A stretch of DNA of 64,000 nucleotides. Source: Halarcobacter sp. (GTDB lineage: Bacteria > Campylobacterota > Campylobacteria > Campylobacterales > Arcobacteraceae). Positions 23,476 through 26,166 of the stretch are shown here, piece by piece (within the stretch, counting starts at the first letter, position 1; every line of letters starts with the position of its first letter). Position numbers and translations under genes: made by a program. The notes under the pieces are model-generated. The model saw nothing but the letters and a program-made list of their open reading frames with translations, did no database searches and was not told where the DNA came from. The stretch covers positions 1,632,001 through 1,696,000 of the forward strand of contig OY781089.1 of the NCBI GenBank assembly GCA_963676565.1, given 5' to 3'.

Positions 23476-23967
23476 ATGGATAGACTTTATGCACCTTGGA
23501 GATTTGAATACGTAACAGAGGAAAAAATTGAAGGGTGTGTATTTTGTCATATACATAAAAATGTTGACAAAGATGAAAAACTTGGAGTTTTATTTAGAGA
23601 TAAAAACTGTTATGTTGTGATGAATAAATATCCATATTCTCCTGGTCATATGATGATAATACCTAATTTTCATACCGATAAAATTGAAGACTTAGATGAA
23701 CAAACATGGATTGATATGTCTATTAGAGTTAGACAAGCTACAAAAATGCTCAAAGAAGTTTTAAATGCCCAAGGTGTCAATATAGGAATGAACCTTAGTA
23801 AAGCTGCAGGAGCAGGAATTGCTGAACATGTTCATTACCATGTCTTACCAAGATGGTTAGGTGATACAAACTTTATTTCATCTATAGGAAATACAAGGGT
23901 ATACCCAGTTGACTTTGATAAGATATATTTGGATCTTAAAGTACAGGCTTCTAAGTATTTTTTATAA
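23476..23967 (+). CDS. HIT family hydrolase
   Basis: LYAPWR, CVFC, NKYPYSPGH, HVHYHVLPRW. Confidence 0.93.
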   Translation: MDRLYAPWRFEYVTEEKIEGCVFCHIHKNVDKDEKLGVLFRDKNCYVVMNKYPYSPGHMMIIPNFHTDKIEDLDEQTWIDMSIRVRQATKMLKEVLNAQGVNIGMNLSKAAGAGIAEHVHYHVLPRWLGDTNFISSIGNTRVYPVDFDKIYLDLKVQASKYFL

Positions 23968-23983
23968 TTAAATTGGATTGTAA

Positions 23984-25111
23984 ATGGAACCTAAAAAAAT
24001 TATTGAATTTGTTAGACAAAAAGACTTTAAATTTATAAAAGAAATTGGTAGAGGTTCTTTTGGCGAAACAGTATTATTAGAAGATGAATATATTGATTAT
24101 GAATTTGTTTGCAAAAAATATTCACCTTTTGAATTTATAGATAAAGAAGCTTTTTATAAAAATTTCATTAATGAAATTAAAACTTTACACCTTCTTTACA
24201 ATAGAAATATTGTAAGAGTATTTAATTATTATTTATACCCAAAATTGCATCTAGGTTATTTGATGATGGAATATATCAATGGTGAAACAATTTCTGATTA
24301 TTTAGAAAAGTATCCAGAAAATTTGAATGATATATTTAAACAAGTAATTGAAGGGTTTTCATATTTAGAATCGCATAAAATATTACATAGAGACATTAGA
24401 GATAATAATATTCTTGTTGATGATAAAGGAATAGTAAAAATTATAGATTTTGGATTTTCGAAGAAAATAAATTTCGATGGTGATAATCAAAAGAGTATAT
24501 CAATTAATTGGATAAGCAGTGTACTACCTGATGATTTTAAAATGGAAATTTATGACCATACTACAGAAATTTTCTTTGTTGGTAAGTTGTTCGAAGACAT
24601 AATGAGCCAAATAAACAGTTCATTTAAATATAAAACTATATTAAAAAAAATGATTGAAGTAAATCCTAAACATAGAATTTCTTCTTTTAAACTAATTCTG
24701 AAAGAAATTAATGAAAAATCTTTTACTTTAAATTTGTTTAATAAAGATGAAAAAAGTATTTACAAAAATTTAGCAGAATCTTTTTCTACTGGAATAGTAA
24801 AAAGAGAAGAATCTTCTAATATAATTAGTGATATTGATAAAATCATTAAAAATCTTGATACATTGCATCAAAAGACAATGCTTGAAGATTTTGTTAATTC
24901 TAAACATTTATTAAGAGTATTTATAGATGGTGAATATCAGTTTTCAAATACGCTAGTTGAAGTTGAAAGTATTCAAAATTTTACTTCTTTCTTTAAAAGT
25001 ATTTCTAGAGAAAAACAAAATATAATTTTATATCATTTATCGACAAGGTTTGATGATGTTTTTAAATATTCAAATAATGTATATATTGATGATGAAGAAA
25101 TACCTTTCTAG
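23984..25111 (+). CDS. Hanks-type Ser/Thr protein kinase with SSB-like acidic C-terminal tail
   Basis: IGRGSFG, VCKK, NEIK, HRDIRDNN, IIDFG; ends YIDDEEIPF. Confidence 0.9.
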   Translation: MEPKKIIEFVRQKDFKFIKEIGRGSFGETVLLEDEYIDYEFVCKKYSPFEFIDKEAFYKNFINEIKTLHLLYNRNIVRVFNYYLYPKLHLGYLMMEYINGETISDYLEKYPENLNDIFKQVIEGFSYLESHKILHRDIRDNNILVDDKGIVKIIDFGFSKKINFDGDNQKSISINWISSVLPDDFKMEIYDHTTEIFFVGKLFEDIMSQINSSFKYKTILKKMIEVNPKHRISSFKLILKEINEKSFTLNLFNKDEKSIYKNLAESFSTGIVKREESSNIISDIDKIIKNLDTLHQKTMLEDFVNSKHLLRVFIDGEYQFSNTLVEVESIQNFTSFFKSISREKQNIILYHLSTRFDDVFKYSNNVYIDDEEIPF

Positions 25112-25164
25112 GTAAAGTAGTTATATATTTAGCATTATTATAAATTAAGTTATACTCAAAAACT

Positions 25165-25300
25165 ATTTTTATGCTTTGTGTTATTTATCTCTTTTGCGTG
25201 ACTAAAAACTTGCTAAAACATTTTGTAAGAACGTTTCTTTACGCTTCAAACAGTTTACTCACTTGTTTTTATAAGAGATAAATAACGCTCGGCTTCAAAA
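25165..25300 (-). ncRNA. Putative structured non-coding element A (RNA or ssDNA)
   Basis: 14-bp perfect inverted repeat gttatttatctctt (25180-25193)/aagagataaataac (25273-25286) enclosing inner stems; on - it shows ttgaagccg...tgtttga...agttt like element B. Confidence 0.45.
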
Positions 25301-25402
25301 ATGTAGAGAGGTTGGATAAGGACATTTGGTTTATTTGTTACCATTTTATTTGAGTTTGTGTCGTATTAAATCTAGGTATGAAAGTTTACAGCTTTTTTCA
25401 GT

Positions 25403-25623
25403 CCAGACTTTGTTGAAGCCGGAAGGTTTTTAATTCTTTTCGAAAAAGCCTGAGAATGTTTGAGATAAAAAGGTGACTAAATGTCACGTTTTTATTGAGT
25501 TTCGCAAGGCAAAAAATAAGTACAAACATGTAGGGAAGCTCTGCCTTCAACAATGTGTCTGGTTGCTTTTTGCCATACTTTTTTCAACAAAAAAGTGTGA
25601 AAGCGTACTCACCTCATGAGTAC
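25403..25623 (+). ncRNA. Putative structured non-coding element B (RNA or ssDNA)
   Basis: Long-range stem ccagac..ttgttgaag (25403-25418)/cttcaacaa..gtctgg (25545-25562); hairpins at 25465-25495, 25574-25599 (U-G pair on +) and 25605-25623. Confidence 0.55.
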
Positions 25624-25655
25624 AAGACCAAGAGAAGTATTTAACTCCTCAAAAT

Positions 25656-25925
25656 CTACTTATGGGAATGACTTTCTGCAATCAAGCCTTGAATTTTTTC
25701 ATAAACTTCATTAGCTTGTTCATCCTCAATTTTTCCTTCATTTACAGCATAAATAATATTTTGTAACTCTACAAGAAAAGACTCCATATCTCTTACTTCT
25801 TCCATATTCTCATCTGTTTGTTCTTTTTTTTCAATAATTGTATGTAAATCATATAGATATGCTTCTACCTCTGGTATCATTGTCTTTTCTATAACTTCTA
25901 ATAAATCTTTTTTAATCTGTGTCAT
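25656..25925 (-). CDS. Hypothetical acidic helical protein
   Basis: ORF with AAGGA RBS before ATG 25925; no motif recognised. Confidence 0.75.
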   Translation of the reverse strand: MTQIKKDLLEVIEKTMIPEVEAYLYDLHTIIEKKEQTDENMEEVRDMESFLVELQNIIYAVNEGKIEDEQANEVYEKIQGLIAESHSHK

Positions 25926-26166
25926 AATTTTATATATCCTTATATTTTTTATATTATATCTTATCAATCCCCTTATTTATATTTTTTTATAGCTTTAAAA
26001 TATGAAAATATAATTTTTCAATTCAAGTAAAATATTAAGTTACAAATTCTCTAATATATTTTATTTAAAATAAACATTAACTATATAAACTATATACAAT
26101 TTCTCTTCCAATTTACAAAAAAATTTAGTATATTATTCTTTGGGAAAAGTACAAGAAGGATAATAT

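Follow-up and report, generated by a model that had tools for sequence, protein, structure and literature searches.

A horizontally mobile putative Ser/Thr kinase of Halarcobacter that ends in a host-matched SSB-type tip

An open reading frame in Halarcobacter sp. (assembly GCA_963676565.1, contig OY781089.1) displays the sequence of a Ser/Thr kinase whose C-terminus copies the docking peptide at the end of SSB. The window, i.e. the whole stretch of DNA that was analysed, is 64,000 nt long. In the genomes compared, the kinase tip tracks each host's own SSB tip, rare variants included. Bacterial replication, repair and recombination of DNA use the SSB tip as their central docking hub, and the known users of the tip are enzymes that bind it. 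That a family of enzymes itself carries this tip, and keeps it matched to the host in more than a dozen phyla, implies strong selection on the interaction between tip and pocket. The findings suggest that a probable anti-phage enzyme joins the DNA replication and repair machinery in a manner not described before. No description of a protein kinase with an SSB-type tip was found in a full-text search of the main texts of openly accessible papers.

The kinase gene and its product

The gene and the segments of its product are located as follows in the window.

23984..25111, + strand: kinase gene (ORF listing; 375 codons and a stop codon; Pfam Pkinase, 104.4 bits)
24011..24718, + strand: Hanks-type catalytic domain, residues ~10–245 (Pfam; AlphaFold2; Foldseek; profile match)
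24047..24064, + strand: Gly-rich loop G22-R-G-S-F-G27 (G24 and G27 invariant in 25 sequences, nearly so in 150)
24113..24115, + strand: ATP-anchoring Lys44 (invariant in 150 sequences)
24386..24394, + strand: catalytic loop H135-R136-D137, with N142 downstream (invariant in 150 sequences)
24446..24454, + strand: metal-binding motif D155-F156-G157 (D155 invariant, F156 and G157 at least 90%, in 150 sequences)
24743..25069, + strand: family-specific alpha/beta C-terminal domain, residues ~254–362 (AlphaFold2)
25070..25084, + strand: short variable linker, residues 363–367 (length and sequence vary in the alignment; drop in pLDDT)
25085..25108, + strand: SSB-tip mimic I-D-D-E-E-I-P-F-COOH, residues 368–375 (P374 and F375 invariant)

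The open reading frame encodes 375 amino acids and its C-terminus is ...NNVYIDDEEIPF. Pfam Pkinase (PF00069) aligns with residues 16–178 (104.4 bits, gathering cut-off 31.7) and PF07714 (PK_Tyr_Ser-Thr) with residues 16–235 (82.9 bits, cut-off 23.1). A database homology search finds full-length homologues in many phyla. Across 150 family sequences, with identity down to 34%, residues K44, E64, HRD135–137, N142 and D155 are invariant. The canonical APE motif, which is typical of Hanks-type kinases and not defining, is absent; a conserved P182-x-[DE]-F is found in its position in alignments of 25 and of 150 sequences. The AlphaFold2 model of the full-length protein has a pLDDT of 90 overall and mostly 86–98 in the catalytic domain, and it displays a complete bilobal kinase fold. 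In a Foldseek comparison this model matches PknB of S. aureus (4eqm_D) with a target-normalised TM of 0.69 and PknB of M. tuberculosis (3orm) with one of 0.65, and 4eqm is also the nearest solved structure by profile search (E = 8e-34). Profile, catalytic residues and predicted fold all place the protein among the Hanks-type Ser/Thr kinases. The catalytic core is intact and under selection, and the protein is predicted to be an active enzyme. The initial annotation had described a soluble Hanks-type kinase with Gly loop, Lys, HRD and DFG intact and no APE motif, and Pfam and both alignments bear this out. A two-copy complex prediction for the kinase gave scores of 0.09 and 0.01 against a mark of 0.42, which is uninformative as to self-association.

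The position of the gene after a ruvA-ddl-murF-HIT run, noted at the outset, agrees with the Pfam assignments of the upstream genes (RuvA, Ddl, an alpha/beta hydrolase, MurF and HIT), and the kinase follows ruvA-ddl-murF-HIT in two congeners as well. Likewise no phosphatase or FHA partner gene was found near the kinase, as had been stated: the only PP2C domain of the genome is fused to a separate 589-aa kinase ~690 kb away, and the single FHA protein lies ~1.3 Mb away.

The C-terminal domain had been described as a helical domain of ~120 aa. This description is to be amended, as AlphaFold2 gives an alpha/beta domain that is not purely helical, with pLDDT 94–98 both within the full-length model and when folded alone. 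Comparison with the PDB by Foldseek gave zero matches at E ≤ 0.001, VIA-align against 48,161 chains gave nothing at Z ≥ 5 (best Z 4.6), and the ESM Atlas gave no usable match after kinase families were skipped. The modelled domain has no known fold relative in the databases compared, which does not by itself prove a new fold. Nor was the domain found in shorter (30–205 aa) or longer (658–2000 aa) proteins; these searches were word-based and used a single sequence, and for that reason the absence of the domain outside the family is weak evidence.

The SSB-type tip and its match to the host SSB

The last eight residues of the kinase, IDDEEIPF, are identical at 7/8 positions to those of the chromosomal SSB of the same genome (IDDDEIPF), a likeness that the initial annotation had proposed to examine. 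Endings of the type [DE][DE][ILVM]PF occur in 3 of 3,843 open reading frames (≥80 aa, six frames) of the 3.34-Mb genome, i.e. the two SSBs and the kinase, where composition alone gives an expectation of 0.027. The resemblance to an SSB tail is thus real and far beyond chance. The kinase has no OB fold (no match to PF00436), and the two true SSBs of the genome are encoded elsewhere.

The ending is conserved in the family. An [ILV]PF ending is present in 118 of the 120 best homologues (76 IPF, 33 LPF, 9 VPF), and the two sequences that lack it are the shortest. Among divergent representatives of 50% clusters, 114/149 end in PF, the remainder being mostly fragments or near-variants. At the 79 genome loci studied, 78 members end in PF and one in PFN. 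The family tail profile has D/E at positions −6 to −4 and I/L/V/M at position −3, followed by P and F, and is identical to that of SSB tips. Judged from these alignments, the tip is the most conserved feature apart from the active site and defines the family. A tail that varied among homologues, which had been named beforehand as speaking against the proposal, was not found.

Residues 367–375 are predicted to be disordered. The pLDDT by block falls from 66 at positions 361–370 to 44 at 371–375; the tail stands below 50 in the full-length AlphaFold2 model and at 53 in a domain-only model, and in both (alignments of 150 and 80 sequences) it is undocked. The kinase ending has the features of the SSB family of tips, i.e. 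an acidic end and [ILVM]-P-F on a predicted disordered tether. The likeness to the bacterial SSB C-terminus (e.g. ...DDDIPF) extends to the acidic run, the I/L/V/M residue, the proline, the terminal phenylalanine and the disordered tether. The two differ in that the tip is carried by a kinase plus an alpha/beta domain and not by an OB fold, with one tail per kinase chain, and in the tether, which is ~5–15 residues long in the kinases, whereas the SSBs examined have far longer tails after the OB fold.

The kinase tip was compared with the SSBs of the same genome. An SSB bearing a P-[FY] tip was recovered in 72 of 79 genomes, the other seven being without a recovered tailed SSB. The last three residues of the kinase are those of a host SSB in 68/72 genomes, whereas 10,000 shuffled pairings of kinases and SSBs give 32.8 on average and never more than 48. 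Identity extends to the last four residues in 59 of these genomes, to the last five in 41 and to the last six in 17. The mean shared suffix is 4.67 residues as against 4.32 when pairs are shuffled within tip classes, and the observed value was reached in 0/10,000 shuffles. The four mismatches consist of two hosts whose SSB ends in LPY, one I for V and one I for L.

Rare tips follow the same rule. The pairs of kinase and SSB endings are DDDMPF with GDMPF in Clostridium, LDEDVPF with LDEDVPF in Verrucomicrobiota, MDDVPF with MDDVPF in Desulfovibrionales, and ELPFN with ELPFN in Acetatifactor; coincidence of the rare tips under random assignment has P ~2.4e-7. On a tree from which the tail was excluded, at least 8 changes of the tip residue are counted, and these switches track the SSB of the new host. 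In a conservative phylogenetic test the independent pairs with good support number only 3, or 7 when all branches are counted; all point in the same direction, but p = 0.25. Mimicry of SSB by the tail, as suggested, has strong support, and the suggestion is sharpened by this co-variation of the tip with the host's own SSB tip.

Mobility of the gene and its neighbourhoods

Comparison with related strains delimits an insertion, whose parts are listed below.

23962..25650, no strand: ~1.69-kb segment present or absent between strains, comprising the kinase and downstream non-coding DNA (G010, metagenomic contigs)
23476..23967, + strand: HIT-family gene, left anchor of the insertion (Pfam HIT; 92.3% nucleotide identity to G010)
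25656..25967, − strand: 103-aa open reading frame, right anchor of the insertion (adjoins HIT in G010; 92.0% nucleotide identity)
25181..25605, no strand: MITE-like dispersed repeat, non-coding and structured, immediately downstream of the kinase (fold, inverted repeats, copies)

The kinase gene is present in 3/25 species genomes of the genus. A close relative (G010) has an empty site with flanks 92–93% identical to those of the window, and empty-site alleles are also found in metagenomic contigs (runs X2 and X7), where position 23961 is joined to 25651 or 25643. No Pfam family scores above cut-off for the 103-aa right anchor. Identity to a congener (G006) is 96.3% for the kinase DNA, as against 74–87% for the flanking genes. 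From these comparisons the gene is accessory and has been transferred recently. Presence as a core gene in all relatives, which the initial annotation had regarded as telling against its proposal, is contradicted by the sparse distribution and the empty sites.

The repeat that follows the kinase contains no open reading frame of 60 aa or more. It displays an RNA fold z-score of −4.54 and two inverted-repeat pairs, and of the 24 other species genomes of the genus 20 contain matches to it, with as many as 36 copies in a single genome. The same repeat lies directly 3′ of the kinase in the congeners G006 and G003. Rfam assigns no family to the downstream non-coding DNA; one match reached 17.5 bits against a cut-off of 105.

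In other phyla the DNA shared between genera is limited to the open reading frame with 25–55 nt upstream and 17–92 nt downstream. An exact inverted repeat of at least 9 nt frames the kinase gene in 18/79 loci (2/77 in an offset control, 0/79 in a shuffled control), and in 16 of the 18 the bounded unit is 1,158–1,186 nt. In these phyla a single-gene cassette of ~1.17 kb, with inverted repeats at its ends, appears to be the unit that moves. The best inverted repeat around the copy in the window is 8 nt and AT-rich. Direct repeats of 6–9 nt, as target-site duplications would leave, are present in the flanks of 4/16 loci, with 5 nt or none in the other 12. Mobile cassettes that lack a transposase and have terminal inverted repeats (MIC/MITE-like) are a known concept, and the minimal cassette described here offers a lead of its own on the movement of single defence-type genes from one genus to another.

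An integron gene cassette was considered and rejected, there being no long attC within the mobile unit and no arrays. In one group of loci (L050) the shared DNA ends 17–27 nt past the stop codon, as against ~57 nt or more for an attC, and each locus has just two occurrences of the cassette end motif and no array of them. Integron core sites have the form GTTRRRY / RYYYAAC, and several cassette ends fit this consensus.

Proteins within two genes of the kinase (291 proteins at 79 loci) were scanned with PADLOC at E ≤ 1e-20. A match was found beside the kinase at 27/79 loci, involving 36/291 proteins; the other 52 loci are without one. The matches include Cas9, Shedu, DpdF, retron/DRT reverse transcriptase, DrmD, Hhe and SoFic, as well as type II and IIG restriction-modification and about ten PDC candidates, and two of them, on a Der GTPase and an ABC ATPase, are probably false. 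Pfam adds HicAB, PIN, AbiJ, Schlafen-AlbA_2, transposases and an integrase, together with housekeeping neighbours at many loci. In a control with open reading frames beside ssb, which had shorter flanks, 16 of 150 gave raw matches (150 of the 180 available were scanned), a similar rate. None of these was left after curation: 15 came from a single model that hit a ~350-aa gene next to ssb, MutY-like in the 3/3 cases checked by Pfam, and one was an ABC ATPase. The kinase gene, as these annotations have it, is often located among defence genes. The enrichment near defence genes that the initial annotation had proposed to test is supported in a qualitative way only: many different systems are represented, and the control is imperfect.

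There is no conserved partner gene, the commonest neighbour family being present at 8/79 loci, and Shedu adjoins the kinase only in five related Burkholderiales-type loci. In the window, the two downstream open reading frames tested gave no significant PADLOC match.

Possible roles and relation to known systems

According to the accessible part of one report, the partner proteins that the SSB tip recruits number at least 17 (PMC10018359), and in that of another the function of RecT is matched to the C-terminal 7 residues of the host SSB (PMC13490951). The explanation considered best here, with a modest lean in its favour, is that of a stand-alone anti-phage or anti-mobile-element kinase whose SSB-tip mimic docks onto SSB-tip-binding proteins. 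A horizontally mobile Ser/Thr kinase would carry a host-matched copy of the docking peptide, and the tip would insert into the SSB-tip pockets of SSB-interacting proteins; the kinase would thereby be tethered to these proteins and would phosphorylate them or be activated by them. Candidate targets in the host include PriA, RecQ, RecO, RecG and ExoI-type proteins. On the side of phages and plasmids, candidates are proteins that need the host SSB tip, e.g. RecT/Red-beta-type annealases and SSB-hijacking replication proteins. The most likely role would be defence against phages or other invading DNA, either by disabling the replication or recombination proteins of the invader or by a shutdown of DNA transactions in the host (abortive infection). 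The C-terminal domain specific to the family probably serves to place the kinase against its captured partner or to regulate it in relation to that partner.

A more specific form of this proposal is put forward tentatively. The protein may represent a new immune sensor-effector class, a "bait" kinase, in which invader proteins grasp the decoy SSB tip and are phosphorylated or activate the kinase. Its targets would be single-strand annealing recombinases, SSB-hijacking replication proteins and helicase loaders; the tip would be re-tuned to the SSB of the new host after each horizontal transfer, and the gene would spread as a minimal single-gene cassette. If the kinase is a defence system, it would represent a new principle of sensing or targeting, in which invaders are baited with a host peptide that they must keep recognising, and experimenters would gain a compact system of one gene. 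Which family member suits which laboratory host is predicted by the host-matching rule.

The gene may instead be selfish or serve a mobile element, the tip docking the kinase onto host replication and repair enzymes that are phosphorylated for the benefit of the element, e.g. in host takeover, in blocking host recombination or repair, or in excluding competitors. The ~1.17-kb cassette bounded by inverted repeats and the dispersed MITE-like repeat that adjoins the kinase in the genus are in keeping with this. A search of 2.9 million viral contigs yielded 3 full-length members, two of them inside phage genomes among phage structural and nucleotide-metabolism genes, and for that reason the gene may sometimes serve a phage. 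The window's kinase locus is not a defence island and has housekeeping genes on its flanks; this together with the two members in phage genomes makes a function in the service of mobile elements possible. The T7 phage kinase, in the accessible part of its description, phosphorylates many host proteins (PMC13645617). However, such members are rare in viral contigs, no member covering at least 80% of the protein is present in 50,697 phage records or 72,556 plasmid records, and most loci are chromosomal. The tip also matches the chromosomal SSB of the resident host, and defence genes carried on prophages or cassettes would look alike. Service to an element is considered unlikely.

Two further readings place the kinase within the ordinary functions of the cell. 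As a host regulator outside defence, it would be drawn by its tip into the SSB interactome where forks stall or ssDNA gaps occur, and would phosphorylate repair proteins there. Bacillus subtilis YabT, a DNA-activated kinase that phosphorylates RecA, is comparable in spirit. The match of tip and host SSB, the position after ruvA-ddl-murF-HIT in the window and in two congeners, and the housekeeping neighbours elsewhere fit such a regulator, and control of the SSB interactome by phosphorylation would be an unexplored layer in genome maintenance. Vertical inheritance would be expected of a core regulator, but the gene is sporadic in the genus, close relatives and natural populations have empty sites, transfer between species and between phyla is recent, and the neighbourhoods vary and are often of the defence type, so that a regulator of this kind is quite improbable. 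Alternatively, the tip may not be meant for third-party SSB partners. It could be an auto-inhibitory pseudo-ligand on the kinase's own C-terminal domain, released once free SSB tips accumulate on ssDNA, or it could bind the OB fold of SSB, the kinase riding on DNA-free SSB and sensing the ssDNA load. Both variants also require host-tip matching, a conserved C-terminal domain without a fold match directly precedes the tip, and the SSB tip has been reported to fold back onto its own OB domain. The undocked, low-pLDDT tail in both AlphaFold2 models speaks against them, and this reading is held to be very doubtful.

The preferred reading, an anti-phage or anti-mobile-element kinase, may be compared with known systems. 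Staphylococcal Stk2 and E. coli PD-T4-6 are single-gene defence kinases. The present kinase resembles them in that it is of the Hanks type and stands alone, no cognate phosphatase or FHA gene accompanying it, and in its sporadic distribution and many defence-type neighbourhoods. Its core matches PD-T4-6 models, which make up 22 of the 25 matches listed (best E = 6e-27), but the alignments end at residue 159–208 of 375 and leave the C-terminal domain and the tip unmatched, i.e. there is no whole-protein match to PD-T4-6. An SSB-type tail is not reported for Stk2 or PD-T4-6 in the accessible parts of the literature found.

The best-scoring defence model listed for the core is mad6 (PADLOC PDLC04138; E = 5e-36, residues 12–177). 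MAD6 (NCBIfam NF047741) is however a protein of ~610–660 aa in a multi-gene system, the kinase reaches 66.6 bits against its cut-off of 460, and no MADS partner genes lie beside the window kinase, where the neighbours are housekeeping genes. These PADLOC matches cover the generic catalytic core only. PknB, Stk1 and StkP include the nearest solved structures by profile and by fold; unlike them, the window kinase has no transmembrane segment and no PASTA repeats (Pfam), and its gene is not core. The NCBIfam model for Stk1/PknB PASTA kinases (NF033483) gives 81.4 bits against a cut-off of 450, and only residues 16–163 align.

CapK/CapS, described as a "DNA damage-activated kinase", was considered and found to be unrelated, being a GHKL/anti-sigma-type kinase in the accessible part of the report (PMC13373217).

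Other proteins that carry an SSB-like tip are known. The T7 gp4 helicase and the gp2.5 SSB share an acidic tail ending in Phe. That case is internal to a phage replisome, involves no kinase, and its tail is not matched to a host SSB; it nevertheless gives a precedent for a second protein that imitates the SSB tail and competes for the same binding site. As far as the accessible part of a preprint describes it, the phage SSB-like protein Bas52_0087, with the tip FDDDIPF, triggers the DRT10 defence system (bioRxiv 10.64898/2026.04.29.721553). It differs from the present family in being SSB-like and encoded by a phage, whereas the kinases are mainly chromosomal and extend over more than a dozen phyla. 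Both are non-canonical carriers of the SSB docking tip that may engage host DNA-processing enzymes.

The kinase open reading frame and its domains

The initial annotation placed an orphan Ser/Thr kinase gene after a ruvA-ddl-murF-HIT run, and the open reading frame is present exactly as described, with genes for RuvA, Ddl, an alpha/beta hydrolase, MurF and HIT upstream of it.

23984–25111, + strand: kinase open reading frame, 375 aa, C-terminus ...NNVYIDDEEIPF

The Pfam protein-kinase domain encompasses residues 16–178 (104.4 bits, cut-off 31.7), and the Tyr/Ser-Thr kinase Pfam model reaches residue 235. Alignments of 25 and of 150 family members show the Gly loop, K44, E64, H135-R136-D137, N142 and D155-F156-G157 to be invariant or nearly so, in agreement with the motifs first noted as intact; the canonical APE motif is absent, as also noted, and a conserved P182-x-[DE]-F stands in its place. 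Every test for the Hanks-type kinase superfamily places the protein in it. Judged by its sequence, the family is that of a catalytically competent kinase.

A full-length AlphaFold2 model, with the 150-sequence alignment as input, is confident (mean pLDDT 90). It displays a kinase domain at about residues 1–245, a compact alpha/beta domain at about 254–362 (pLDDT 94–98) and a tail at 367–375 that is predicted to be disordered (pLDDT <50). The C-terminal domain had been termed helical; the model thus makes it an alpha/beta domain instead. Among solved structures, those closest to it are ordinary bacterial Hanks kinases; for S. aureus PknB (4eqm) the profile E-value is 8e-34 and the target-normalised TM 0.69. 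The C-terminal domain also folds in isolation (pLDDT 91). It gave no match at E ≤ 0.001 in a Foldseek search of the PDB, and VIA-align against 48,161 chains reached no Z as high as 5; further searches, themselves weak evidence, did not find the domain outside the kinase family.

As the initial annotation had stated, there is no phosphatase or FHA partner nearby, and the sole FHA protein of the genome is encoded far from the kinase. The sole PP2C is fused to another Hanks kinase in a 589-aa protein outside the window (G000:C1:964789–966312; loci L020, L252 and L254), and similar proteins of 579–589 aa are found in several congeners.

The C-terminal tip and the SSB of the host

The genome encodes two SSBs. 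The chromosomal SSB, with rpsF and holA-like genes as neighbours, ends in ...DIDDDEIPF, and seven of its last eight residues are identical to those of the kinase. Among 3,843 open reading frames (at least 80 aa, all six frames, 3.34-Mb genome), three end in [DE][DE][ILVM]PF, namely the two SSBs and the kinase, compared with 0.027 predicted from composition. The second SSB (144 aa, ...DIKDEDIPF) is located outside the window at G000:C1:2900052–2900486 (L002); its gene adjoins a MYG1/UPF0160-type exonuclease-like gene and may be part of an integrated element.

The tail is conserved in homologues. A word-indexed search of 5.8 billion clusters yielded 1,038 proteins at E ≤ 0.001. The top 120, from many phyla, are 45–100% identical over their full length, and 118 end in [ILV]PF (76 IPF, 33 LPF, 9 VPF), the two exceptions being the shortest of the 120 sequences. 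An exhaustive HMMER search of 1.84 billion representatives gave 188 clusters at E ≤ 1e-30; a PF ending is present in 114 of the 149 new representatives listed (30–59% identity), and most of the 35 that lack it are N-terminal fragments or near-variants (such as ELPFN, VLPFT and EIPY). In one-genome-per-species contigs a relative is encoded in 314 of 396 pattern-matched stretches. Of the best 80 loci, 79 contain the open reading frame, with a PF ending in 78 and PFN in one. Residues directly before the tip vary in length and sequence across the alignment. The tail profile of the family (acidic at −6 to −4, I/L/V/M at −3, then invariant P and F) is that of the SSB tips in the same genomes.

All PF00436 matches were located in the 79 locus-bearing genomes and the SSB C-termini read. 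In 72 of these, one or more SSBs with a P-[FY] tip were recovered. The remaining seven (two Gastranaerophilales MAGs and five Bacteroidota) yielded no tailed SSB, probably owing to truncated open reading frames or missing contigs. The kinase and a host SSB have the same last three residues in 68 of the 72 genomes; 10,000 shuffles of kinase-genome pairs gave 32.8 ± 3.8 matches, with a maximum of 48. Agreement extends to the last four residues in 59 genomes, the last five in 41 and the last six in 17. The mean shared suffix is 4.67, versus 4.32 ± 0.08 when shuffling is confined within tip classes (0 of 10,000 reach the observed value).

Rare tips follow the host as well. In Clostridium beijerinckii the kinase ends in ...DDDMPF and the SSBs in ...GDMPF (twice) and ...SNMPF. 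The pairs are ...SLDEDVPF and ...NLDEDVPF in a Verrucomicrobiota MAG, ...MDDVPF and ...GMDDVPF in a Desulfovibrionales MAG, and ...FDELPFN and ...DEELPFN in an Acetatifactor MAG, where both proteins carry the extra final residue. The four rare kinase tips all occur on hosts with the same rare tip (P about 2.4e-7 under random assignment). Longer agreements are seen in Burkholderia-type genomes (kinase EMDDDIPF, SSB DEMDDDIPF) and a proteobacterial MAG (NFDDDIPF, DNFDDDIPF).

When the last 12 residues are left out of the maximum-likelihood kinase tree, the phyla intermingle. Eight or more changes of the tip residue are seen, and the switches go with the host: V/V pairs arise on two occasions, M/M on one, and L/L on four or more within an otherwise I-type clade, e.g. 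a Chlorobiota (L) member whose sister is a Planctomycetota (I) member. A conservative independent-pairs test has only three well-supported pairs (seven on all branches), which are all concordant, but with p = 0.25. The four mismatches are two hosts with LPY SSBs, one I versus V, and one I versus L, the last in a small MAG contig. The LPY hosts are Bacteroidota (G048 and G068, hosts of loci L032 and L052), with SSB ...DLPY and kinase ...DDLPF.

The proposed mimicry of the SSB tail is thus supported and sharpened, and these comparisons argue that selection keeps the kinase tip identical to the docking tip of the resident SSB.

Transfer, cassettes and gene neighbourhoods

The kinase is not a core gene. 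Full-length orthologues are present in three of 25 species genomes of the genus, including that of the window. Those in G006 (96% identity, ending YIDDDEIPF) and G003 (57%, ending YYNEDDEIPF) also follow murF-HIT. In G010, the closest relative examined (flanks 92–93% identical in DNA), the HIT stop codon and the gene for a 103-aa protein are about 56 bp apart, with no kinase between them; the window has 1.69 kb extra at this position. Contigs from two public DNA runs join position 23961 to 25643 or 25651 and are empty-site alleles; kinase-bearing contigs are found in the same two runs.

The kinase gene of the window is 96.3% identical in DNA to that of G006, compared with 82.4% for the 3′ part of murF, 74.4% for HIT, 88.2% for the downstream non-coding region and 87.0% for the 103-aa gene. 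Its G+C content is 22.3%, versus 26–31% in neighbouring genes. These values indicate recent exchange. HIT (window 23476–23967 versus 997–1488 of the G006 locus L004) is itself unusually diverged, more so than murF and the 103-aa gene, which lie to the two sides of the insertion point.

The 544 bp 3′ of the kinase contain no open reading frame of 60 aa or more, have an RNA fold z of −4.54 relative to shuffles, and hold two inverted-repeat pairs. Within them lies a dispersed repeat:

25181–25605 (within 25112–25655): MITE-like structured non-coding dispersed repeat, about 425 nt

Of the 24 other species genomes of the genus, 20 contain this repeat, a single genome having as many as 36 copies, and its contig depth in metagenomic runs is very high; it matches no Rfam family. 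A copy directly follows the kinase in G006 and G003 also, and one lies near HIT in the kinase-less G016.

In other phyla the mobile unit is shorter yet. The 21-kb loci of different genera, cultured isolates included, have in common the open reading frame and short flanks only (25–55 nt upstream, 17–92 nt downstream, 88–97% identity). At the ends lie inverted repeats whose variation from subgroup to subgroup is compensatory: GTTGGGTGCA...TGCACCCAAC, GTTGGCAGTA...TACTGCCAAC and GTTGGCAGAT...ATCTGCCAAC. An exact inverted repeat of at least 9 nt frames the gene at 18 of 79 loci (offset control 2/77, shuffled control 0/79), and at 16 of the 18 it bounds a unit of 1,158–1,186 nt with the kinase as sole cargo:

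Cassette loci: L029, L031, L033, L035, L036, L038, L040, L043, L044, L046, L050, L052, L060, L088, L092, L097

The repeats are 9–12 nt long, of the form GTT[AG]G... / ...C[CT]AAC, and lie, at most loci, about 30–40 nt 5′ of the kinase start and 6–17 nt after the stop. These ends resemble integron core sites; the loci show no long attC, no array, no transposase and no clear, established target-site duplication. The window's own copy has no detectable inverted-repeat pair.

Searches of 50,697 phage and 72,556 plasmid records gave no member that covers at least 80% of the protein. Among 2.9 million viral contigs there are three full-length members, each ending in an SSB-type tip; two of them belong to phage genomes and sit between structural or nucleotide-metabolism genes (L242 5938–7134 and L243 1123–2286, tips DDDIPF and VDDLPF). 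One is located between head-tail adaptor/head-assembly genes and ribonucleotide reductase, the other directly upstream of terminase, portal and protease genes.

There is no conserved neighbour; the best recurring family is found at 8 of 79 loci. Within two genes either side, 36 of 291 proteins at 27 of 79 loci match PADLOC models at E ≤ 1e-20. These include Cas9, Shedu, DpdF, a retron/DRT reverse transcriptase, type II and IIG restriction-modification, DrmD, Hhe/PDC-S37, NsnB-like, SoFic and about ten other PDC candidates; two matches (Der GTPase, ABC ATPase) look false. Pfam neighbours at the first 42 loci include HicAB, PIN, AbiJ, Schlafen-AlbA_2 with an HTH gene, EAD11, Fic, transposases and an integrase, and plainly housekeeping genes too. 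A Shedu-type (SduA, DUF4263) nuclease gene directly adjoins the kinase (gene +1) at five related, Burkholderiales-type loci (L067, L069, L076, L082, L085), mostly convergent, reflecting either one ancestral island or a functional pairing. The window's own locus shows no defence island.

As a control, 150 of the 180 open reading frames adjoining SSB genes of the same genomes were scanned and 16 matched: one an ABC ATPase, and 15 a single model, PDLC03398 ("Type II nicking endonuclease", E 1e-26 to 1e-37), on a gene of about 350 aa beside ssb in Bacteroidota (L105, L107, L108, L111, L112, L114, L120, L121, L124, L125, L127, L128, L132, L188, L191). All three such genes checked with Pfam are MutY-like (HhH-GPD and NUDIX_4), a systematic false positive for defence scans. 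The raw rates are alike (12% for kinase neighbours versus 11% in the control), so that what sets the two apart is the kind and diversity of the matches. The support for enrichment near defence genes is qualitative, with no clean statistic. The gene has the character of a mobile accessory gene and is often met in defence neighbourhoods.

In gut Bacteroidales (L057, L059, L061) the kinase lies in a common 4.6–9.3-kb block, 92–99.9% identical between different genera, with an HTH gene, a 593-aa Schlafen-AlbA_2 protein and a large MTES_1575/Hhe-type helicase-nuclease at −2, −1 and +2.

Proposed role of the tip

Stk2 and PD-T4-6 are single-gene defence kinases. The present family may work in a similar mode, with a targeting or sensing module that those two are not known to possess, as a defence-type stand-alone kinase with an SSB-tip bait, for which a defence role is plausible.

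At least 17 partner proteins are described as docking onto the SSB tip (PMC10018359), and the C-terminal seven residues of SSB as setting the function of phage-type RecT recombinases in a host (PMC13490951). A phage SSB-like protein with an FDDDIPF tip is reported to trigger DRT10, a defence system that involves the SSB partner SbcB (bioRxiv 10.64898/2026.04.29.721553), and phage recombinases to be targeted by several defence systems (PMC11846896).

The kinase bears its SSB-type tip on a short flexible tether. The tip would enter the same pockets as the SSB tip and tether the kinase to whichever proteins carry them; these would then become its substrates or activators. Matching to the host is expected with pockets on host enzymes or on phage proteins adapted to the host. 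That the tip is a functional SSB-tip mimic is very probable, and that it docks into partner pockets is probable. The whole statement, mimicry and docking together with a defence role, is on balance favoured, and the mechanistic and anti-phage ideas of the initial annotation are plausible.

Three other explanations bear on the same data. The kinase may serve the phage or cassette that carries it: it is the sole cargo of cassettes and occurs in phage contigs, and the family is mainly chromosomal; we regard this as unlikely. A non-defence regulator of replication and repair would suit the host-matched tip, the housekeeping neighbours and the window's own locus, and less so the diverse defence genes at other loci; its probability is lower still. 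Finally, the tip might act on the kinase itself or on the OB fold of SSB; this appears the most improbable of the three. The reading preferred here remains docking in the service of defence.

With respect to known families, the kinase scores far under the cut-offs of the PknB/PASTA, MAD6 and PglW equivalogs, and PD-T4-6 models match it over the catalytic core only. It carries the defining tip of SSB and lacks the OB fold, and is therefore not an SSB. The public names of family members go no further than "protein kinase family protein" and similar labels, and full-text searches of the literature turned up no account of a kinase that ends in an SSB tip. In the present case the tip belongs to an enzyme family that is mainly chromosomal, spans many phyla and can be shown to match its hosts.
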